Below, in pieces: positions 9,693-62,733 of a stretch of DNA of 64,000 nucleotides (position 1 is its first letter; the number at the start of each line of letters is the position of its first letter). The stretch comes from Dehalococcoidia bacterium (GTDB lineage: Bacteria; Chloroflexota; Dehalococcoidia; SM23-28-2; RBG-16-64-32), in NCBI GenBank assembly GCA_963665775.2, contig CAXXTF010000001.1, positions 512,001 to 576,000 of the forward strand, written 5' to 3'. The notes under the pieces are model-generated. The model was not told the origin of the DNA and made no database searches. It saw only the letters and a program-made list of their open reading frames with translations. The position numbers and the translations under genes are program-made.

Positions 9693-10232
9693 ATGTCACG
9701 AATAGGAAGCATGCCCATATCGATTCCCAGCGGTGTGGATGTCCGTATTCAGGGCAGCAGCGTGACAGTGAAGGGACCCAGGGGGGAGCTGCATCGCGAT
9801 GTTGACCCTGACATGCGGCTTGCGGTCACGGATGGCCAGCTCCTGGTCTCCCGACCGTCGGAGCAGCAGCGCCATAGGGCCCAGCACGGGCTCACGCGGA
9901 CCCTCCTGGCCAACATGGTGATCGGCGTCAGCGAAGGGTATACCAAGGCCCTGGAGATGCAGGGCGTGGGCTATCGGGCCCAGATGCAGGGCAGCGACCT
10001 GGTGCTGGCGGTAGGCTACTCTCATCCCGTGCGGGTACCGCCGCCGCCAGGCATAGAGTTCGAGGTTGACGGCAACACTAGGCTGCTGGTGAAGGGGATA
10101 AGCAAGGAGCTGGTGGGGCAGGTGGCTGCCGACGTCCGTAAGGTGCGGCCGCCGGAGCCTTACAAAGGGAAGGGGATCCGCTACGTGGGCGAGTATGTGC
10201 GTCGCAAGGCGGGCAAGGCCGGTAAGGCATAG
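9693..10232 (+). CDS. rplF: 50S ribosomal protein L6
   Basis: MSRIG..PI, GYSHP, RPPEPYKGKGIRY. Confidence 0.98.
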   Translation: MSRIGSMPISIPSGVDVRIQGSSVTVKGPRGELHRDVDPDMRLAVTDGQLLVSRPSEQQRHRAQHGLTRTLLANMVIGVSEGYTKALEMQGVGYRAQMQGSDLVLAVGYSHPVRVPPPPGIEFEVDGNTRLLVKGISKELVGQVAADVRKVRPPEPYKGKGIRYVGEYVRRKAGKAGKA

Positions 10233-10245
10233 TGGATAGAGATCG

Positions 10246-10614
10246 ATGAACAAGACTAGAACCGTCAGAGCTGCGCGAAGACGACGTCACCTGCGCGTCC
10301 GCAAGAAGCTGACGGGGACGCCCGAGAGGCCGCGACTCGTCGTATTCCGGAGCGCGAACCACATCTACGCCCAGATTGTCGACGACAGCATCGGTCACAC
10401 CCTGGTCGCCGCCTGCGACCTGGAGGCTGAGCTACGTGCCTCCCGGAACGGTAAGAAGAAGACGGAGATGGCCGACCTGGTGGGCCAGGCTATCGCCGGA
10501 CGGGCCAAGGCGAAAGGGATCGGCACTGTGGTGTTCGACAGGGGCGGATTCCAGTATCACGGCCGCGTCAAGGCGTTGGCGGAGGCGGCCCGCAAGGTCG
10601 GCCTCAGTTTCTAG
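10246..10614 (+). CDS. rplR: 50S ribosomal protein L18
   Basis: [36 protein letters not shown]. Confidence 0.98.
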
Positions 10615-10628
10615 CGAGCGAGGGGATT

Positions 10629-11165
10629 ATGTCTAACCCGCGGAAATATATAGCCACGAAGGAACGCGTGGACCCCAGCCAACTGGAACTGAACGAGAAA
10701 GTGGTGTACATCAACCGCGTGGCCAAGGTGATGAAGGGTGGTCGCCGCTTCCACTTCACCGCCGTGGTGGTGGTAGGCGATATGGCCGGCCACGTGGGCG
10801 CCGCCATGGGCAAGGCGACCGAGGTGCCCGAGGCGATCCGCAAGGCCGGCGCCATCGCCCGCAAGCACATGATCGAGGCGCCCATGACGGGCTCTACCAT
10901 TCCTCACCCGCTGCTGCTCCGCTTCGGGGCGGCTAAGGTCATTTTGAAGCCGGCGCCCCCGGGTACCGGCCTCATCGCCGGCGGCGGTGTGCGCGCCGTG
11001 CTGGAGATGGCCGGGGTGAAGGACGCTGTGGCCAAATCCCTGGGCTCCAATAACCCGGCCAACGTGGTGAAGGCTACGATCCTCGGCCTCTCCAAGCTCC
11101 GTTCCCCGGAGGAGGCCCTGGCTCGTCGGCGGAACGTCTCACAGGAGGCGTCCCTTGGCTGGTAA
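10629..11165 (+). CDS. rpsE: 30S ribosomal protein S5
   Basis: [38 protein letters not shown]. Confidence 0.98.
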
Positions 11166-34690: not shown

Positions 34691-34787
34691 GGGAGTGGAA
34701 AGGTCCCGGTGGGCCTCGCGGTCTTCAAAACCGTTGCGGGGCGGTGGACCCGTCCCGGGTGGGTTCGACTCCCATGCACTCCCGCCA
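34691..34787 (+). tRNA. selC: tRNA-Sec (anticodon UCA)
   Basis: GGGAGTG/CACTCCC-GCCA acceptor stem, anticodon loop CTTCAAA, long variable arm, GGGTTCGACTCCC T-arm. Confidence 0.92.
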
Positions 34788-44154: not shown

Positions 44155-45363
44155 TCATTCGCTGACGGTGATCTGCCCCCACATCTGGGTGGGATGAACG
44201 TCACAGCGGAAGACGAGGGTCGCCGGCGCGTCCAGAACGAAGGCGAACTCGCCTACCTCGCCGTTCCCCAGGAACGCGGTGGCGAAGTCGCCGGTATTCC
44301 AGTCGCCGTCGAGGCCGGCGATGCGGAGGTTGTGGAGCTGGGTCCCCGGATTGGTGAGGCGTATGGTCACGGACTCGCCTACCTTCATCGCGAAGTTGTT
44401 GAGGGTGAAGAAGTTGTCCTGAGAGTCCGTTTCGATGACGCCGTCCGTGGGCTCCACGAACTCCGATTGGACCTCCTGGGCGGTGGCCGGACGCTCCGGC
44501 TGCCCCGCGCCGCCGGCGGTGGCCGGAGCTACGGGGAGCTGGCCGCAGGGGGGGATTCCTTGCTCGCCTGTGAGCGGGTCCTGGGGCGACTGGGGCGGTA
44601 TGATCGGCCCGGCGAACACCTCCGTCCCCGTCTGGTGCTCCGTGGCCTTCGTCCCAAAGGCGCCTCTCTCTACCTCGATCTCGTTCGTCGCCTCCCGGAC
44701 CTCTACTATCTTCACCACCTCGTACGCATATAACCCTTCCACCCACTCGCCGCCAATTCGCAAGAGCATCTCTTCTTCCTCCGTTGACGCTTCCAGCTCG
44801 CTGACGTCGTTCAGGGTCAGCACCGTGACCGACTCGCTCGCTTGCTGAACGAGCTCCTTGTCCAGGCTGTCGAGGAGGTTCGCCTCCTCTATCGCCGCTT
44901 CCCACCCAATCTCGCTGACAGCGTTGGGGTCGGCTGGGGGATCAAAGCCGGGCATAGTGCCGGTAATGAGGGCGACCAGCTGGTCGATCTGGAAGTCGTT
45001 GAGGGGCCCCAACTGAGCCTGGGACCAGGGCGGCATCAGGGTGCCCACCCGTCCGCAGACGATGGTGTCGTGGATGCGGCTCTGCTTGGCGTTCACGTCA
45101 CCGATCGACACGGGCCGGTTCGCTTCGATGTTCAGAGGCACGCCCGGCAGCCTGACGCTCTCCAGGATCCCCTGCCCGGCCAGCCCGTGACAGGCCCGGC
45201 AGTTGAGGCCGAACAGCTCGCCGCCCCGCTCGGCGTTCACCTCCTGCTGGCGCAGCTCGGCGTCTTCCGCCCGCTGCGGGTCCCAGAGCCAGTAGAGCAG
45301 AGTGGCCAGCGCGAACAGCATCAACAGCCCCACCATCACATTTACCTGCTTGCTGGTATTCAT
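44155..45363 (-). CDS. Membrane-anchored cytochrome c fused to a C-terminal cupredoxin domain
   Basis: N-terminal transmembrane helix, CRACH, MPPW; C-terminal HN...CDVHPTQM type-1 copper ligands. Confidence 0.82.
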   Translation of the reverse strand: MNTSKQVNVMVGLLMLFALATLLYWLWDPQRAEDAELRQQEVNAERGGELFGLNCRACHGLAGQGILESVRLPGVPLNIEANRPVSIGDVNAKQSRIHDTIVCGRVGTLMPPWSQAQLGPLNDFQIDQLVALITGTMPGFDPPADPNAVSEIGWEAAIEEANLLDSLDKELVQQASESVTVLTLNDVSELEASTEEEEMLLRIGGEWVEGLYAYEVVKIVEVREATNEIEVERGAFGTKATEHQTGTEVFAGPIIPPQSPQDPLTGEQGIPPCGQLPVAPATAGGAGQPERPATAQEVQSEFVEPTDGVIETDSQDNFFTLNNFAMKVGESVTIRLTNPGTQLHNLRIAGLDGDWNTGDFATAFLGNGEVGEFAFVLDAPATLVFRCDVHPTQMWGQITVSE

Positions 45364-48204: not shown

Positions 48205-48234
48205 ACTCTAGCATCAGGCCCCGATTACTGTCAA
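48205..48234 (-). promoter_or_regulatory. Promoter of the cytochrome bc operon
   Basis: TTGACA-N18-TAGAGT with extended -10 TGn. Confidence 0.6.
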
Positions 48235-48396
48235 GGGTATCTGTGCTATTTTAGGGCGTGTGTTACCAAAATGCCACGCCTGGCCGTTCGAGCCGCCTGC
48301 GGCACCGGCGGCGGCCGACTGTAGGGCCTCGATCTGGGCCTGGGCGTCAGCTATCTGCTCTTGCAGGGCGCTGACTTCCGGGTTCTGTTTGGCCAT
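48214..48396 (-). CDS. Short coiled-coil protein, possibly the truncated last gene of the phage-like module
   Basis: Strong Shine-Dalgarno AAGGAGG; heptad-like N-terminus; 3' end runs into the bc promoter. Confidence 0.5.
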   Translation of the reverse strand: MAKQNPEVSALQEQIADAQAQIEALQSAAAGAAGGSNGQAWHFGNTRPKIAQIPLTVIGA

Positions 48397-48489
48397 TATG
48401 GGTCCTCCTTCTCAGGGCGCTTCGCTCTCGTGCTAGATCGCCTCTGCTTCTCCCGCCAAGCGGTGTGTTGGGCCTAGGGAGTTGCCAAC

Positions 48490-48693
48490 CTAGGCACCAC
48501 TGCGGCTGCCGAAATAGAAGCCGATGACGTTGCTGAGGGCGGCGATCCAGCCGCCCACTACTATCTTCGTCAGGTCCGATGAGGCGTCATGGGCCAGCAG
48601 GAAGCCGACGATGGCTCCCGCCGCCAGCACCACCCCCAGCGACATCAGGGAGCGCACGCTCCCCCGCGGCAGTCCTAGAGGCTCCTCGTTCAT
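48490..48693 (-). CDS. Small two-helix membrane protein (holin-like)
   Basis: PLGLPRGSVRS, two hydrophobic segments, VIGFYFGS; ATGA overlap with the portal stop. Confidence 0.65.
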   Translation of the reverse strand: MNEEPLGLPRGSVRSLMSLGVVLAAGAIVGFLLAHDASSDLTKIVVGGWIAALSNVIGFYFGSRSGA

Positions 48694-50051
48694 TGCTCTC
48701 CTCCTTCACTGTCGATTCGGCTCTCCTCTTCCTGCCAGCGCTCCCACTCGACGTCCGGGTCGGCCACCCCCAGGAGGCTGGCTGCCGTCCGGCGGGAGTG
48801 GATGCCGGCCTCTACCAGCCGTGCCTCCTCCTCCACTAGTCGCGCCCGGTCCTGGGGTAGGATAGGGCCCCAGACCACCCGCGAACGGTAGGGCGCAAAG
48901 CTCTCGCCCGTCTCCTTTTCCAGGATGCGGAGGGTCATCTCGTTTCGACGCCGGAAAGCGGCGGCGCGGATGAGCCGCTTCCGATTCACCTTCTTCAGCA
49001 GGGGGTCCAGCTCCATCTGGAGAGCGACGCCGGACAGGGCTTGCCGGGTCTCCCCGAAGTCGCTGCGCGGCACCTCCGCCAGGTCGTGCAGGGTGCGCAG
49101 CACCAGATTGGCATAGTCCACGTGCAGGCCAACGCCGCCCCCCTGGAGCAGGTCCAGCAGGTAGGCCTTCGCCTTCTCCGGGACCTCCCAAACAGCTCCC
49201 GGCTGCACGGCGATGTCCTGGGCCTCCGTGATGTTCTCCAGCACCGCGATGGGGTTCCCCGATAGCTCCAGGATCAGGGAGAGCTGGGAGACAGCCCGGT
49301 TGAGCTCTCGTAGGGGCTCCTTAAGGGCCGCCAGGTCGGAAATCCCCCAGAATTGCTTCGGCTCCCGCAGGTTGGGGTAGATGACGAAGGGGATGAAGCC
49401 GTAGGGGTTGGCCCGCTCCTCCCACAGGGCGCCGTCCAGCCAGAGCTGAAAATCGGATTCGGTTCAGGCCTCCACGATGGCATGCTCGCTCTTGCGCGAG
49501 CGCGGCAGCGAGCCGAACAGCCTCTCCGCCTCCTCGTGGTCGAGGACGTAGCGAGAGGCGACCCGCCAGACGCGGGAGGGGTCGTCCCCCAGCCACCAGG
49601 CGTACAGCCCCTGCACGTCCGGAGCGGAAACCCGCACCCGTCGCTCAAGGGGGTCCCAGGTGACCTTATAGGCGGCGTCTCCCAGGATGGAGCAGTCGAT
49701 CTCATTGTCGAAATCGAGCTGATCGAGGCTGTTCGCCTCGTATACCTCCCGGATGGCCCGTTCGGCGCGGCGGGCGCTCTCCAGCGCCTCGGGGGAGGCC
49801 TCCTCCGGCTCCACGATGAAGGAGACGCTGGACATAAGGTAGGAGGCCGTCTTCTCGATGACGGTCTTGGCGTAGTTGAAGGTGAGGCGGCGTTCGCGGC
49901 GCCGCTGGGGCTCCAGCCACTGGCGGCCCTGATAGAACTCCAGGTTCTCCCGGTAGGCCCTGAAGCGGCCCAGGTCCAGCCGGACCAGCTGCTGGGGCAG
50001 GGGAAGGGCATCCCCCTGAGCGCTCGCTGCCTCGGCGAAGGTGCTGACCAT
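48690..50051 (-). pseudogene. Phage portal protein (SPP1 gp6-like) with one in-frame TGA at 49464-49466
   Basis: FY.G.QW, RLTFNYAK, LGDA..KV.WD, NPYGFIPFVIYPN, SG.AL...L.PL..K; both ORF halves share a frame. Confidence 0.8.
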
Positions 50052-50067
50052 AGTTATGCCTCCATGT

Positions 50068-50529
50068 CTATCGGGCGGCCTGCCTGGCGGCGGGCAGTCC
50101 TCCCGCTGCGATCTGATCGTTCTCCGCCGAGGTGGGGTGGCCGTTTCGCCGGCGCCCCGGGGGCCGATCCTCCTGGCTCGCCTCGAGCCTTGTCGAAAGG
50201 ATGCGGAAGACGGTGCGGCGGGACACGCCGAAGCGTCCCGCCAGATCGTCCACCGTGGCGCCCCCAAGCCTCAGCTCCAGGATCTTCCGGTCGCGGTCGG
50301 CGTTGATAAGGGCCCGCAGTCCGCCCGGCTCGTCGTAGCGGCAGCGGTTCAGGGGGCAGGTGAGGCAGGAGGGGTGGACTTCGCAGCCGTTGTCCTGGTA
50401 GCGGATGTACTCGGGGAGGGCGTCGGCGCGGACTCTTTTGCCGGTAGGCATTGGGCCGGTAGGCATTGGGCGGACGCTGATGCTGGCCGTTCGACTGTGC
50501 TTGGGGTAGGTCTCCGTCAGAGGGGACAT
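50068..50529 (-). CDS. Cys-rich (C-x5-C-x2-C-x4-C) plus HTH DNA-binding protein
   Basis: GCEVHPSCLTCPLNRC; DLAGRFGVSRRTVFRIL helix-turn-helix. Confidence 0.75.
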   Translation of the reverse strand: MSPLTETYPKHSRTASISVRPMPTGPMPTGKRVRADALPEYIRYQDNGCEVHPSCLTCPLNRCRYDEPGGLRALINADRDRKILELRLGGATVDDLAGRFGVSRRTVFRILSTRLEASQEDRPPGRRRNGHPTSAENDQIAAGGLPAARQAAR

Positions 50530-50544
50530 CGGCAGCGCTCCCTT

Positions 50545-52008
50545 CTAGATCCTGCCTTGAGCGGAGGCTGGGGGCTGCCGCGTCAGCCGCCCGCGGGCCA
50601 CCCGGGGTCGCGGCTCCAGATCGGCGGCCGCCGCCGCGGCGAGGGCGAGGCTCATGAGATAGTCGTCGTGGCCCTGCGACGGTTCCACGAAGAAGTTCAT
50701 GGTGCGGTTGGGGCGGTACACCAGGCGGGCCTGCTCCATCTCCCGCCAGAAACCGGCGAACTCCGCTGATCCGTCGGCAGCGTACATCTTCAGCCGGCCC
50801 CCGTTGACGGCGGCCAGCAGCCCGTACCCCAGCCGCGACTTGGATTCCGCCGTGAAGCGAAAGGGCTGAACCACCTGCGACCCCAGGGCCCTGGCTAGCA
50901 GGCGGGCCATGGTCTCGCCCAGGCCGGTGGCGTCCAAAACCAGCCGCCGCACCCGCCAGACCTCGCGCAGGAGGTCCACCAGCCGGGCGAGCAGCGAGTC
51001 GTGTAGCACCCCCACCTGGACCAGGTGCTCGACGACCTCCAGACGCGCCTCCGGGACCACGGCGTCCGAGGGCGAGGGCAGGACTCTGGCGATGGTGAGG
51101 ACGCTGGCGTCGCGCCCCCGTGTGGCGGACTCTTGGCCGGGCCCTTGGTGATCGGCGGCGAAGTCCTGACCGGCCAGGTCCAGCCCGGCGACATAAGTGT
51201 CTCCACCTCTGGGCGCGTACTGGCGGCCGTGGCTCCCTTGAAGCTGGGCCCGCTGTCCCGAGCTGAACAGACGGCCGCCGCCGGAGAGCGTCTTCAGGGC
51301 GTACTGGGTGAGGGAAAGGGGATGGTTTTCGCCCAGGCGGGCTCGCTCCGCCTCCACGTATCGGGCGTAGCTCGGGTTGAGGGCCGCCACCACCGTCCAG
51401 TCGGCCGAGAAGTGACGGCGCAGGCCGTCGCGGCGCTCCAACTCCAGGTTCGTCTGAACCGCCTGCTCCAGCAACGTCGAGTCGTCCCAGGGGGTGCCGT
51501 AATAGACGGTGGTGGCGCCGGTGGGAGCGGCCATGGGCCGGAACTCGCGGTCGAACTTCTCCCGGTCGACATCCTGGGCCTCGTCCACCTCCAGAAGGAG
51601 GCCCGCGGTATGGCCCATGACGCTGGCCGAGGGCTCGGCCGACAGGAAGAGCTGGCGGGCCCGGCCCAGGCGGATAGCGCTGCCGTGCTCGCGGGCGCCG
51701 ATGCTCTCCAGGCCGGCCTGGACGAGGCGGCTCCAGAGACGCCGCAGGCTGATCCGCCCCTGGGGCTCAAAGGAGGGGGCGCACTTGATGCCGTCCACGA
51801 CCTGCCGCGCGTGCTTGACCAGGAGGAGCAGCTCCATCTGGGCCGAGAGTTCGTTCTTGCCGGCCTGGCGGGCCATCACCACCGTGAACGTGAGGCCGCG
51901 ATGGCCCAGCACCGAGTCCACGATCGCCCGGCCCGCCTCGGTCTGGTATGGCCGCAGGCGCGGCAACCCGGGGATCGTGGACTCTACACCCTCGATTGCC
52001 GTCGCCAT
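50545..52008 (-). CDS. Terminase large subunit-like protein
   Basis: LRPYQ, Walker A ARQAGKNE, Walker B LLEVDEAQD, YYGTP, nuclease GLDLAG, LDATGLG, HDDYLMSLAL. Confidence 0.88.
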   Translation of the reverse strand: MATAIEGVESTIPGLPRLRPYQTEAGRAIVDSVLGHRGLTFTVVMARQAGKNELSAQMELLLLVKHARQVVDGIKCAPSFEPQGRISLRRLWSRLVQAGLESIGAREHGSAIRLGRARQLFLSAEPSASVMGHTAGLLLEVDEAQDVDREKFDREFRPMAAPTGATTVYYGTPWDDSTLLEQAVQTNLELERRDGLRRHFSADWTVVAALNPSYARYVEAERARLGENHPLSLTQYALKTLSGGGRLFSSGQRAQLQGSHGRQYAPRGGDTYVAGLDLAGQDFAADHQGPGQESATRGRDASVLTIARVLPSPSDAVVPEARLEVVEHLVQVGVLHDSLLARLVDLLREVWRVRRLVLDATGLGETMARLLARALGSQVVQPFRFTAESKSRLGYGLLAAVNGGRLKMYAADGSAEFAGFWREMEQARLVYRPNRTMNFFVEPSQGHDDYLMSLALAAAAAADLEPRPRVARGRLTRQPPASAQGRI

Positions 52009-52009
52009 G

Positions 52010-52243
52010 CTACTGCACCAGCTTCAGGATCAACTGAGCGATGACGGTGCCCGTCACCAGGAAGATGAGACCGTTGAGGCGGCCTTTCAGGTCGCCCACG
52101 TCTCGCTCCAGGACCTGCAGCCGCTGCTCCGCGGCCGCGCGGAAGGCGGCGGCGGAGCAGCGGGCGGCTGTAGCGCCGTCTCTACCGGCTGGGCGGCGGG
52201 TCGGCCGGAAGCGGGAGATAGCGCGGTGCAGGGCAGTGGGCAT
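52010..52243 (-). CDS. Small coiled-coil protein with C-terminal membrane helix, probably leaderless
   Basis: ATG lies 6 nt after the -10 box; EQRLQVLERDVGDLKGRLNG followed by a hydrophobic tail; stop abuts the TerL start. Confidence 0.65.
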   Translation of the reverse strand: MPTALHRAISRFRPTRRPAGRDGATAARCSAAAFRAAAEQRLQVLERDVGDLKGRLNGLIFLVTGTVIAQLILKLVQ

Positions 52244-52249
52244 GGTCAG

Positions 52250-52279
52250 AGAATAGAACGTTTGTTCTCCTAATGTCAA
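52250..52279 (-). promoter_or_regulatory. Sigma70 promoter with LexA (SOS) box between -35 and -10
   Basis: TTGACA-ttaggaGAACaaacGTTC-TATTCT; box AGAACGTTTGTTCT at 52255-52268. Confidence 0.85.
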
Positions 52280-52374
52280 GGGAGTTGTGTCAGAAGGCGA
52301 CGCTACGGGGGTCGGAAAGGGATGCCGCGACGCTCGGGGCGCACTCATGTTAGCCGGGCCGCCGTAGCATTCAT

Positions 52375-52698
52375 TCAGGTCGGCGGCAGGAGCTGGTCGC
52401 CCAGGCTGTTGAGGGTGGCCGCCAGGTTGTCGGCCAGGTCGTGCCGCGCCTTGGGGGAGAGCCGGTAGCGCGCCGCTACGGCCTTCACTAGCAGGTCCAT
52501 CCCGCGTACCAGAAGCTGCAGGTCCTCTGGCCGCTCCTCGACGGCGTGCTTCAGGCGCACCCGAAGCAGAGCGATCTCGTCGTCCAGCCCTTCGATATCC
52601 TGGGCATGGTTCAGCTCTACCTGCTCGGCCTCGGTCAGGGCCTGCCGGTAGAAGTTACGGGGCGAGGGGCGACGGCGGGCTCTAGCGGCGCCCGCCAC
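52375..52698 (-). CDS. Candidate terminase small subunit
   Basis: N.Y..AL, LDDEIALLR.RL helical pattern seen in TerS-like proteins; position upstream of TerL; GTG after GAGGTG. Confidence 0.55.
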   Translation of the reverse strand: MAGAARARRRPSPRNFYRQALTEAEQVELNHAQDIEGLDDEIALLRVRLKHAVEERPEDLQLLVRGMDLLVKAVAARYRLSPKARHDLADNLAATLNSLGDQLLPPT

Positions 52699-52882
52699 GG
52701 CGGCCACCTCGCTTCGTCCCGTCAGACGGCCGCCGCCGCGCTGGTGCCGCGTCCAGCACCGCCAGCAGCGCATCGGCGGCGTCGGGTGGTAGGGTCGCCG
52801 CCGCCCGGCTTACTCCCCACAGGAGACAGAGGGCGGCCAGCTCCCACTGCTGCCGTTCGATCGCTACGATTAGGGTGGTCAC
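52682..52882 (-). CDS. Hypothetical small protein
   Basis: GTG after GAGAGGAG; overlaps the next gene; ALCLL..V...A.TLPPDA. Confidence 0.55.
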   Translation of the reverse strand: MTTLIVAIERQQWELAALCLLWGVSRAAATLPPDAADALLAVLDAAPARRRPSDGTKRGGRRGGRR

Positions 52883-52907
52883 GGCTGCTCCTCTCCGGTC
52901 GCGGGCC

Positions 52908-53210
52908 TCAGCGGCTCGCAACGCGACGAAGGATAAGAAGGGATATGAAGGCCGTGCCCGCCAGGGGTATAGCACGGGCCAGCGTCCAGGACGCCCACGA
53001 TGACACGGAAGCGAGGGGAGGATCCGGTGGCGCAGCCGCCACGGATGCCAGGAAGAGAAGGCTCTCCATGATCGCGCCAAGGGAGAGCAGCGCCAGGGCC
53101 AGGGCGGCCACTCGGTGTGACGCCGCTTGCTCCCGGCGGGAGGTGAGACGGTGCAGGAAATAGGTCAGGTTAAGCGTTGCGCAGGCGACGATGGCTAGAT
53201 CCAGGCCCAT
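52908..53210 (-). CDS. Small three-helix membrane protein
   Basis: Three hydrophobic segments; first gene after the SOS promoter. Confidence 0.6.
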   Translation of the reverse strand: MGLDLAIVACATLNLTYFLHRLTSRREQAASHRVAALALALLSLGAIMESLLFLASVAAAPPDPPLASVSSWASWTLARAIPLAGTAFISLLILRRVASR

Positions 53211-53292
53211 AGCCGTAGCCCGCCAGGTGGTTAACAAGGGTACCTCCCATCATCGAAGCGGTTCCTGTGCTGAAAGGCATGAGACGATATCC

Positions 53293-53322
53293 AGAATAGA
53301 ACACGCGTTCTTATCCTGTCAA
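53293..53322 (-). promoter_or_regulatory. Sigma70 promoter with LexA (SOS) box between -35 and -10
   Basis: TTGACA-ggataaGAACgcgtGTTC-TATTCT; box AGAACACGCGTTCT at 53298-53311. Confidence 0.85.
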
Positions 53323-53373: not shown

Positions 53374-53715
53374 CTACCCTTCCGGCCCCAGAAGATGACC
53401 GCCCAGGCAGTGCAGGTGCAGATGGTGTACGGTCATGCCCGCGTCTGGCCCCACGTTGAAGGTCAGCCGGTATCCGCGTTCCGCGAGTCCTTCCTCCCGG
53501 GCGACCTGAGCGGCCGTAGTGAACATTCTGGACAGGAGACCCCCGTGCTCGCTGCCGATCTCCGCGGCCGAGACGATGTGCTCCCTGGGGATCACGATGA
53601 AGTGGACGGGCGCCCGCGGGTTAATGTCGCGGATGGCGAACACCAGATCGTCTTCGTACAGCTTATCGACCGGCGTCTTGCCCTGGGCCATGTTGCAGAA
53701 TAGGCAGTCGGCCAT
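53374..53715 (-). CDS. hinT: Histidine triad (HIT) nucleotide-binding protein
   Basis: DCLFC, RDINP.APVH...IP, HLHLH. Confidence 0.93.
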   Translation of the reverse strand: MADCLFCNMAQGKTPVDKLYEDDLVFAIRDINPRAPVHFIVIPREHIVSAAEIGSEHGGLLSRMFTTAAQVAREEGLAERGYRLTFNVGPDAGMTVHHLHLHCLGGHLLGPEG

Positions 53716-61955: not shown

Positions 61956-62663
61956 CTAGCTTATGGGCCGGATGGCGCCGATGACCCGGCCCTGAACCTC
62001 CACGTTGCTGGCCTCCGTGTATATGGGCTCCATCGTCTCATTGGCCGGCTGCAGCCGAACCCGCTGGCCCTCCCGGAAGAGCTTCTTGAGAGTGGCCTCC
62101 TGCTCCCGCTTAAGCCAGGCCGCCACCATCTCGCCGTCGTTGGCCACCGCCGTGGCCTGCAGGAAGACGATATCGCCATCGTGCACCAGGGCGTCGATCA
62201 TGGAGTTCCCCTTGACGCGCAGGGCGTAGACCTGCTCCCGGTTGCCGAGCATCTCCGGGGAGACCTCAACGGTCTCCTCCTGATCGAAGCTCCCCCAGGT
62301 ATCAGCGGAAGGAACGGGGATCGGCTGCCCGGCGGCGATGGTGCCGATTATGGGGACTGGCACGACCCGCGGCCGCCGGCCGCCCGGTGGCAGCAGCTCA
62401 ATGGCGCGGGACACCTCGCGGTCACGGCGCATGTAGCCCAACCGCTCCAGGATGCGCAGGTTATAGTCGACCACGGACGTGGAACTGATATTGCAGGCTT
62501 CCTGAATCTGGCGGATACTGGGTGGGTAGTCGTGCTCGTCTATGAAATCGCGGACGTATTCAAGGATACGCTGCTGCTTCGCGGAAAGCTCCTTCATCTG
62601 CTCCTCCGTAGTTTGTGCGCCGCTCCCGTTGGGGCTCTCGTCCATCTGCTCCGCACCTGGCAC
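61956..62663 (-). CDS. lexA: SOS repressor LexA
   Basis: YPPSIR.I, SSTSVV, Ala-Gly cleavage site IAAGQP, catalytic GNSM and ATLKK. Confidence 0.95.
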   Translation of the reverse strand: MPGAEQMDESPNGSGAQTTEEQMKELSAKQQRILEYVRDFIDEHDYPPSIRQIQEACNISSTSVVDYNLRILERLGYMRRDREVSRAIELLPPGGRRPRVVPVPIIGTIAAGQPIPVPSADTWGSFDQEETVEVSPEMLGNREQVYALRVKGNSMIDALVHDGDIVFLQATAVANDGEMVAAWLKREQEATLKKLFREGQRVRLQPANETMEPIYTEASNVEVQGRVIGAIRPIS

Positions 62664-62680
62664 CGCGGCCGTGAGGGCGG

Positions 62681-62733
62681 CGAACCTTTGTTCGTCAGAA
62701 CACTAGTCTAGAGACCATCCGTTCGATTGTCAA
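62681..62733 (-). promoter_or_regulatory. lexA promoter with autoregulatory SOS boxes
   Basis: CGAACCTTTGTTCG (62681-62694); TTGACA-N17-TAGACT with degenerate GAAC-N4-GGTC in the spacer. Confidence 0.8.

Follow-up and report, generated by a model that had tools for sequence, protein, structure and literature searches.

A phage-derived DNA-packaging cassette as part of a candidate gene-transfer-agent-like system in Dehalococcoidia

The packaging cassette and its borders

The window analysed in this work is a stretch of 64,000 nucleotides from a Dehalococcoidia bacterium (GenBank assembly GCA_963665775.2, contig CAXXTF010000001.1, positions 512,001 to 576,000), in which a cassette of nine open reading frames (ORFs), all on the minus strand, fills the gap between a HIT gene and an operon for cytochrome b and a Rieske protein. 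A preliminary description of the window had proposed nine co-oriented genes here, and all of them are present where it placed them; the ORFs are real and no chance prophage scrap. Family searches (Pfam, PHROG) name the large terminase subunit (TerL), a helix-turn-helix (HTH) protein and the portal, and several of the small proteins are without a family match. We think that the cassette is the packaging half of a candidate particle system resembling the gene transfer agents (GTAs). Its packaging and structural features are the following, in window coordinates and in the order of transcription.

52375-52773 (conserved helical core 52384-52668), minus strand: small terminase subunit (TerS), found upstream of TerL across the class, with PHROG small-terminase matches in relatives
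52010-52348, minus strand: tail-anchored coiled-coil membrane protein; the likely true ORF, from relatives' homology, is 52010-52243 (77 aa, ATG at 52243)
50545-52008, minus strand: TerL, predicted packaging ATPase and nuclease, intact (Terminase_6C, E 5.5e-4; PHROG terminase large subunit, 3.9e-4)
50068-50529, minus strand: protein with four cysteines and a helix-turn-helix (Cys4-HTH protein), conserved core from about residue 33 (HTH_23, 6e-6; PHROG 'late transcriptional activator', 1.3e-4)
48690-50051, minus strand: SPP1-type portal gene, interrupted by an in-frame TGA at 49464-49466 (SPP1_portal, 2.4e-7 and 5.6e-12)
48214-48396, minus strand: scaffold-gene remnant, a 60-aa 'coiled-coil ORF' whose first 26-43 residues match relatives (tblastn, ORF clustering)

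According to Pfam, the cassette is flanked by the HIT gene (53374-53715) on one side and by the cytochrome b and Rieske operon, from 47996 downwards, on the other. The genome to which the window belongs (2.35 Mb, 2 contigs, 91% complete) gives 22 integrase-family matches, none of them beside the cassette and the nearest about 45 kb off. No att-like direct repeats bracketing the cassette were found, nor any replication genes beside it, no family scan being aimed at replication or lysis genes elsewhere in the genome. The earlier picture of an integrase-less module between housekeeping genes is therefore borne out. A functional temperate prophage would carry an integrase and att sites at its borders, and these borders have neither.

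Promoters and predicted LexA boxes

Two promoters of the consensus TTGACA-N6-GAACN4GTTC-TATTCT were recognised in the cassette. The first lies some 60 nt ahead of the gene that opens the cassette, the end of the cassette in the preliminary description (53322) being the first base of its -35 box. The second ends 6 nt before the ATG at 52243, which is likely the true start of the membrane-protein/TerL operon. The gene of the presumed repressor is found in the same window.

53293-53322, minus strand: promoter P1, with -35 box TTGACA (53322-53317), 6 nt, the palindrome GAACGCGTGTTC (53310-53299) and a -10-like TATTCT (53298-53293)
52250-52279, minus strand: promoter P2, with TTGACA (52279-52274), 6 nt, the predicted LexA box GAACAAACGTTC (52267-52256) and TATTCT (52255-52250)
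61956-62693, minus strand: lexA gene (61956-62663; PF01726, 1.7e-18) and its promoter, 9 kb from the cassette

The motif GAACN4GTTC is the LexA site of Gram-positive bacteria and of Dehalococcoides. The promoter of lexA itself has a box of this kind, GAACAAAGGTTC, at 62693-62682, plus a one-mismatch box between TTGACA and TAGACT. Exact matches to the box number 4 in the window and only 20 in the whole genome, that of P1 being one of them. There is no exact box near recA (C2:1286015), a degenerate copy is all that lies upstream of the genome's own capsid gene, which is described below, and neither an exact box nor the composite promoter was found upstream of the remnant scaffold ORF.

The same motif was followed through related loci. 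Exact boxes number 107 in 161 loci (2.28 Mb), and 60 of them stand at -30 to 250 nt upstream of cluster genes, some duplicate contigs being counted. An exact box precedes the packaging genes in 21 of 59 genomes, including all 17 of the window's own order, and the head genes in 10 of 50. In addition, relatives have a box equivalent to that of P2 upstream of their membrane-protein/TerL genes, and the composite promoter, when up to one mismatch in the box is allowed, faces cluster genes in 38 of the 59 genomes and in 16 of 19 families. SOS control, which had been put forward in the preliminary description, is thus supported as a promoter architecture, with putative LexA boxes before the operons here and in relatives and the same box at lexA. 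Judging from these motifs, the cassette appears to be controlled by LexA, which would bind at the boxes.

The packaging proteins

TerL is divergent, its Terminase_6C match (5.5e-4) falling below the cut-off of Pfam, and it has 31% identity (3e-36) with an annotated phage terminase. Nevertheless, it has what defines a large terminase, that is, Walker A, Walker B and coupling motifs together with the acidic residues of an RNase-H-like nuclease. The Walker A residues R47-Q48-G50-K51, the Walker B residues E140/D142-E143, the coupling motif Y170-G171-T172 and the nuclease aspartates D277, D359 and D449 are invariant in 56 sequences.

By sequence, the TerS of the window (a 132-aa ORF) matches no Pfam family and no solved structure at E 0.01 or better, and Atlas gives weak leads only (0.75-0.78), to DUF1804, the T5 small terminase and DUF5681. 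Its core is a 95-aa helical segment without an HTH match. In other families, TerS carries an additional basic motif at its N-terminus, and such members do match PHROG small-terminase families, with matches for 3 of 24 members (phrog_1889, 6.4e-9; phrog_370, 3.4e-6; phrog_509, 6.5e-6). The complex of the TerS core with residues 1-265 of TerL was also modelled, and reached a score of 0.69 versus 0.02 for the best control; a score of 0.69 was attained by 58 of 80 solved complexes and by 2 of 110 mismatched pairs. The model runs share at least 64% of their contacts, with a predicted local distance difference test (pLDDT) of the partner of at least 50, and the modelled interface places the C-terminal helices of TerS against residues 14-115 of TerL. 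The modelling supports the binding of TerS to TerL.

The Cys4-HTH protein, with three invariant cysteines and one nearly invariant, sits between TerL and the portal across the class. Its profile matches among solved structures are generic HTH domains, the Mor/C-type activators appearing only at E 0.15-0.76, and its structural model (pLDDT 75.8) has no Foldseek match at E 0.001 or better. We regard it as a candidate regulator of the cluster or DNA-recognition factor; as a separate protein, it could supply DNA recognition. A perfect 15-nt tandem duplication at 50440-50469 of the window, encoding a repeated MPTGP, lies in the non-conserved N-terminal extension of its ORF.

The portal is a single gene, as the translation of 48690-50267 shows both halves in the same frame with a single TGA between them. 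The halves match positions 13-120 and 287-414 of the SPP1_portal profile, so that a full-length match in one open frame is lost here to the TGA, and the orthologues are intact. The earlier assignment as a portal stands, with the correction that its one reading frame is interrupted.

Regarding the coiled-coil membrane protein, the homology of relatives starts at residue 33-36 of the long ORF. The protein also occurs in families f11, f25, f26, f32, f54 and f76, and its PHROG matches are weak and to families of unknown function only.

Head and tail genes at a second locus

Downstream of the portal, relatives carry conserved genes for a scaffold, a capsid, small structural ORFs, an adaptor and a hub-like protein of about 620-650 aa. 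Pfam scans of the window's own genome for capsid (PF05065) and Mu-F (PF04233) domains were empty, which was a false negative for the capsid gene; this gene was reached by clustering the ORFs of relatives' loci and searching back in the genome by tblastn. Capsid, adaptor and hub-like protein are encoded at G000:C1:353722-358736 (G000 being this genome), 208 kb from TerL, between a class-V aminotransferase and RuvB. The head genes, which the preliminary description had placed elsewhere in the genome as one of two alternatives, were therefore found, and with them tail genes.

The capsid protein (295 aa) is of the HK97 type (phrog_212, 3e-74; PF05065, 1.1e-8; SU10_MCP), and the adaptor (211 aa) of the SU10 type (PF24175, 2.3e-7). 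For the hub-like protein, the AlphaFold model (pLDDT 76) predicts a six-bladed beta-propeller at residues 36-332, similar to fucose lectins and sialidases (Z 23.5, root-mean-square deviation 2.8, 255 residues aligned). Another part of the model resembles Mu gp44 and the baseplate hubs of contractile injection systems (4.6e-9 to 1.8e-7), a likeness that comes from Foldseek alone, the VIA-align rows covering the propeller only. No solved-structure match was found for this protein by sequence.

Between capsid and adaptor lies a gene for a 279-aa protein (10036-10875 of locus L057, on G000:C1) with Gly/His-rich repeats of the form TVDATH.GS.HH, whose C-terminal domain matches phrog_24062, a family of unknown function, at 3.2e-10. 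The protein may serve as a fibre or decorate the head.

In other genomes assembled as single-contig chromosomes, the capsid gene ranges from adjacent to TerL to more than 1 Mb away from it, the separated ones lying 48 kb to more than 1 Mb apart. There are also compact clusters of about 9-15 kb. In our best reading, the full cluster has about 11 genes, namely those of TerS, the tail-anchored membrane protein, TerL, the Cys4-HTH protein, portal, scaffold, capsid, two small structural proteins, adaptor and hub-like protein. Between them, the two loci thus contain head and packaging genes derived from a phage and no modules for integration, replication or lysogeny, which is the gene content expected of a GTA.

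The empty scans for capsid and Mu-F domains, in spite of a real capsid gene, show that family scans can miss genes, and this lends something to the idea of a complete, self-transmissible temperate phage whose other modules have been overlooked. A prophage of that kind would be a contiguous genome with replication, lysogeny and lysis modules. Here the genes are divided between two loci at a distance of 208 kb, and housekeeping genes border both of them, HIT and cytochrome bc for one and aminotransferase and RuvB for the other; moreover, the whole cluster measures about 9-10 kb in the smallest carrier genomes. We find this explanation hardly credible.

Distribution, descent and selection

Homologues of the cluster were sought in samples of genomes of the window's order and of the whole class. 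In the order, TerL occurs in 37 of 41 genomes and in all 19 of those at least 90% complete, with identities of 57-75%, the sample spanning six families. In the class, TerL was found in 203 of 301 genomes (156 of the 223 at least 90% complete; identity 48-75%), the portal in 182 (140 of 223; 47-75%) and the capsid in 172 (134 of 223; 56-89%). One unpublished genome (G272) contributes one positive to each of these class tallies, which without it are 202 for TerL, 181 for the portal and 171 for the capsid, of 300; it is absent from the trees, the selection estimates and the promoter counts. The copies of the three genes are mostly one per genome and mostly free of stops, and some of the carrier genomes measure only about 0.8-1.0 Mb. 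For TerL, 2807 relatives were retrieved from a database, all unnamed or 'hypothetical protein' and all from Dehalococcoidia or Chloroflexi metagenome-assembled genomes. Beyond the class, 355 genomes from other classes of the phylum were sampled, and 22 of them have the capsid gene.

Gene order is conserved as well. At 16 loci of the order, the TerL and HTH genes are adjacent in all cases, a colinear full-length portal follows in 12, and HIT is nearby in 10; the core order TerS, TerL, HTH, portal is repeated in distant families. In the per-genome gene table many blanks reflect the short stretches compared and are no sign that a gene is absent.

Several deviations from this arrangement were observed. 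The genomes of genus g46 have 2-5 TerL copies with about 50% identity to the query, and in genome G060 three extra copies (L038, L039, L040) are solitary, and neither a portal nor a capsid gene lies within 10 kb of them. Two genes on the opposite strand stand between portal and scaffold in several genomes of the order, as in L019 (12547-14133), coding for a 271-aa Cys-rich protein and a 253-aa lipoprotein-like protein; they are host genes inserted into the cluster. In L026, the portal gene is split, its two parts lying about 32 kb from each other on a single contig (G005:C17, one part at G005:C17:52500-53153) and covering residues 16-231 and 227-444, which looks like an insertion or rearrangement within the gene. 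Among contigs from IMG/VR, L061 has the gene order scaffold, capsid, TerS, TerL, portal, and L060 is without an HTH gene between TerL and portal.

The descent of the cluster was followed with trees of TerL and capsid for the 42 genomes, from 16 families, that have both proteins at 88% coverage or more and without stops, out of 56 and 44 sequences, respectively. Each tree has 16 changes of family label, the minimum being 15 and the mean of shuffled labels about 31.5; none of 200 shuffles gave a number as low. The two trees have 17 of 39 splits in common, against a shuffle mean of 0.22, and the Mantel correlation between TerL and capsid is 0.54, a value that none of 999 permutations reached. Inheritance with the host clade is therefore observed at the level of families and orders.

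The ratio of nonsynonymous to synonymous rates (dN/dS) was estimated in 18 genome pairs. Values below 1 were obtained for the capsid (0.04-0.25), the portal (0.06-0.21), the adaptor (0.07-0.25), TerL (0.06-0.32), the hub-like protein (0.13-0.31) and the scaffold (0.20-0.53), so that packaging and structural genes alike are under purifying selection, as is the case for GTAs. In the same pairs, the flanking HIT and acyl-CoA dehydrogenase genes give equal dN, dS and ratio. The vertical inheritance in Dehalococcoidia that the preliminary description had suggested is consistent with all of this: orthologues across the class, a conserved gene order, trees that follow host families, and ratios well below 1 and equal to those of flanking host genes.

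These data also bear on the possibility that the cluster is a defective or satellite-like element that still moves among Dehalococcoidia, for example by means of a helper phage, and settles at preferred sites, so that its distribution would result from spread instead of inheritance. The patchiness of the capsid gene (172 of 301 genomes in the class, 22 of 355 outside), the finding of the cluster on four 'viral' contigs of IMG/VR, the different gene order of some contigs such as L061 and the high GC content of the cassette, given below, would fit such an element. On the other hand, the gene trees follow the host families with hardly a deviation and are congruent with one another, also for genes lying far apart, dS equals that of neighbouring housekeeping genes, loci separated by 48 kb to more than 1 Mb have each been retained, host genes are inserted between parts of the cluster, and the cassette has no integrase or att repeat. 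Moreover, the four IMG/VR contigs with TerL (L058-L061) carry only the same cluster. We consider a mobile element quite improbable.

Damage in the strain of the window

Three genes of the system are broken in this strain, in agreement with the decay that the preliminary description had allowed for. The codon at 49464-49466, TGA in the window, is TGG in the loci of 14 of 14 relatives. Contigs of four sequencing runs were also compared with the window: X8, X9 and X12, from three studies, have TGG, and X2 has TGA like the window.

The second lesion concerns the scaffold. The coiled-coil scaffolds of relatives have about 130-220 aa, and in the window the promoter of the cytochrome bc operon comes directly after the remnant. 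Runs X8, X9 and X12 have 391-537 extra letters at about 48306-48314, where X2 again matches the window. Taken with the homology of the remnant, these extra letters point to a deletion within the scaffold gene in the strain of the window. The last 'coiled-coil ORF', which had been counted as a gene of its own, is thus the N-terminal remnant of the scaffold gene. At the second locus, the capsid gene has a deletion of 1 nt in comparison with three close relatives. TerS, TerL, the HTH protein, the adaptor and the hub-like protein are whole.

Because near-identical contigs from three runs keep the intact portal codon, the damage is recent and local, and the system is best read as freshly pseudogenised in this strain. 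Intact and broken portal and scaffold genes among near-identical contigs mean that the loss of such a system has been caught in the act.

Broken genes invite the explanation of an ordinary cryptic prophage remnant in neutral decay and of no use to the host, the more so as truncated or frameshifted portals are also found in the relatives L018, L021, L025 and L026. Against it, orthologues with 47-89% identity exist across the class with intact frames and a dN/dS of 0.04-0.32, the catalytic residues are invariant, the promoter architecture is conserved, and the three other runs retain the portal codon. In our opinion, a useless remnant is very unlikely, and at family level these data contradict it.

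The window has a single tRNA gene, a tRNA-Sec (anticodon TCA) at 34691-34787, and since this gene is present the organism probably makes selenoproteins. An insertion of selenocysteine, or read-through, at the portal TGA was considered in view of this tRNA and rejected, given the TGG in all 14 relatives and in three of the four runs.

Proposed function

We think that the cassette is the packaging half of a vertically inherited, putatively LexA-controlled, GTA-like system of phage-derived particles that was domesticated long ago, and we give this reading a probability of about 0.6. GTA-like function is proposed as a candidate; at the least, the element would be a domesticated defective prophage that is of use through its filled heads. 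We infer the following course of events. LexA would occupy the box that separates the -35 from the -10 element in the promoters of the operons, and DNA damage would lead to its removal. Capsids would then assemble on the portal, TerS and TerL would fill them with DNA by the headful mechanism, at random with respect to the chromosome, and short-tailed particles would be released, bind glycans on other cells through the propeller domain and transfer the DNA. In the many genomes where the genes are scattered over the chromosome, one particle would not be able to carry the whole system, which would then behave like a GTA.

A narrower proposal goes further, namely that this is an independently evolved sixth GTA, present in Dehalococcoidia and some other Chloroflexota, short-tailed, glycan-binding and LexA-repressed. 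Upon DNA damage, part of the population would become donors that export random chromosome fragments, and in these bacteria, whose genomes are small and which have few other systems of mobility, such export could be a main route by which genes are exchanged. We put this forward tentatively, at somewhat less than even odds.

Several points weigh against the GTA-like reading. The GC content of the cassette is 67.8%, compared with a genome mean of 63.3% (standard deviation 2.8, 5-kb windows), which corresponds to the 96th percentile; the host-like base composition noted earlier is thus roughly right and no more than that. The predicted LexA boxes are not enriched: exact boxes number 20 in the genome versus 26.7 expected from base composition, and one-mismatch boxes number 19 in the window versus 17.4 expected. 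Outside the window's order, exact boxes are patchy, and the composite pattern is permissive, 55 sites facing cluster genes and 23 lying elsewhere in 1.03 Mb. About one third of the sampled genomes of the class are without each marker, and whole families are empty (f28, 0 of 17; f30, 0 of 7). The deep nodes of the trees are weak. For these last two reasons, that the cluster arose once, at the root of the class, is no more than a possibility, and old transfers between families may have occurred. Neither tail tube nor tape measure nor endolysin was seen on inspection of the loci, no dedicated search having been made for them. The phage relatives of the capsid have genomes of 43-58 kb, so the head may hold more than the cluster of about 11 kb, and for compact clusters the classical argument of a head that cannot accommodate its own genes may not apply. 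Finally, TerL outlasts the heads in genomes G007 and G019 and in genus g75.

Loci of this last kind are L018 (G007), L021 (G019) and L029 (G094), in which the portal is truncated, the capsid is partial or was not found, and TerL and the HTH protein are intact. Between G007 and G019, TerL has a dN/dS of 0.20. Since TerL is constrained in lineages without heads, part of the selection may be unrelated to particles; either a further role of the terminase or a very recent loss of the heads may be behind this. The survival of TerS, TerL and the HTH protein after head loss in some lineages suggests an additional cellular role of the terminase.

The same observations are relevant for a domesticated particle that is selected for something other than gene transfer, such as an SOS-triggered killer or bacteriocin-like particle of the PBSX kind, altruistic lysis with release of DNA, or defence against related phages, packaging being incidental. 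SOS-type promoters are typical of defective killer prophages, the predicted lectin- or sialidase-like propeller of the hub-like protein suits the binding of other cells, TerL, TerS and the HTH protein are still retained in genomes with decayed portal and capsid genes, and one genus has extra solitary TerL copies. In most lineages, however, purifying selection acts on TerS and TerL as well as on portal, scaffold and capsid, which points to filled heads and not to tails alone, and among the cluster genes none for a toxin, a sheath or a tail tube was seen. Besides, a particle of this kind is not exclusive with the GTA reading, as PBSX also packages host DNA. We regard selection for such other purposes as unlikely, though it deserves to be kept in mind.

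Comparison with known systems

The GTA-like system is best compared with the GTAs of the RcGTA type in Alphaproteobacteria. Both have a cluster of head, tail and packaging genes that comes from a phage and is devoid of genes for replication or integration, vertical inheritance over a large host clade, purifying selection, control by host regulators (putative in our case) and parts at separate loci. RcGTA is controlled by CtrA, GafA and quorum sensing, whereas control in the present system would apparently be direct, through LexA boxes in the promoters. The two also differ in that they arose independently and show no close relationship in sequence, the capsid belonging here to phrog_212 and the adaptor to the SU10 type, in the lack of any tail tube or tape measure among the genes found here, and in the host phylum, which is Chloroflexota in our case. 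According to PMC11841831, known GTAs have a short TerS without a recognisable DNA-binding domain, and in this order of Dehalococcoidia TerS is also short, with no such domain recognised.

VSH-1 of Brachyspira, Dd1 of Desulfovibrio, VTA of Methanococcus and BaGTA of Bartonella are, like the system proposed here, independent domestications of tailed-phage modules. They are defined by observed particles and transfer, and the Dehalococcoidia cluster by its sequence. VSH-1 is inducible by DNA-damaging agents. Its genome is divided, according to a title in the reference list of PMC11841831.

PBSX-like prophages of Bacillus are SOS-inducible and fixed in the chromosome, and form non-replicating particles that package host DNA. 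PBSX is a contractile-tailed killer in few species, in contrast to the present cluster, which is class-wide and in which no sheath or tube genes were seen.

The capsid proteins of cultured phages reach at most 42% identity (294 records), and their TerL proteins at most 31% (4 records). Clostridium phage vB_CtyS-FA70, the Pseudomonas Ab18 group, Streptomyces phage Rowa and Bacillus phage vB_BboS-125 have the same capsid family, at 40-42%, and the same TerL family, at 31%. These tailed phages have complete genomes of 43-58 kb, while the cluster proteins of Dehalococcoidia are 47-89% identical among themselves and come without any non-structural module.

Few independent GTAs are known, and none in Chloroflexota. 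No published description of the cluster was found in literature searches or in the 2024 review PMC11841831, its supplementary tables lying outside this scope. A preprint that came into consideration (10.64898/2026.09.15.751708) concerns an unrelated filamentous element.

Dehalococcoidia abound in subsurface, soil and marine habitats, and if the GTA-like reading is true, it would offer a concrete and testable mechanism by which they exchange genes. It would also provide a second, unrelated model for the question of why cells keep 'selfless viruses'. Moreover, contigs such as the four from IMG/VR would represent host genes within viral catalogues.

Accessory genes and other features of the window

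Three further small genes complete the cassette.

52908-53237, minus strand: 109-aa protein with three hydrophobic segments, an accessory gene at the level of the order, without a family match
52682-52888, minus strand: small conserved ORF of about 55-68 aa between the preceding gene and TerS, the conserved part of a 132-aa ORF at 52682-53080
48490-48693, minus strand: 67-aa protein with two hydrophobic segments, without a family match

Relatives of the protein with three hydrophobic segments were found by tblastn at the same position in families f1, f6 and, weakly, f76. In the small ORF, residues 65-119 or so of the 132-aa frame match relatives at the same position with 42-68% identity, and there is no family match. 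The protein with two hydrophobic segments has relatives at 5 loci only, all in family f1, and its designation as holin-like is only a guess.

Outside the cassette, a 402-aa protein encoded at 44155-45363, at the end of the cytochrome bc operon, has a haem-binding-like CxxCH near its N-terminus and no Pfam match at E 1e-5 or better.

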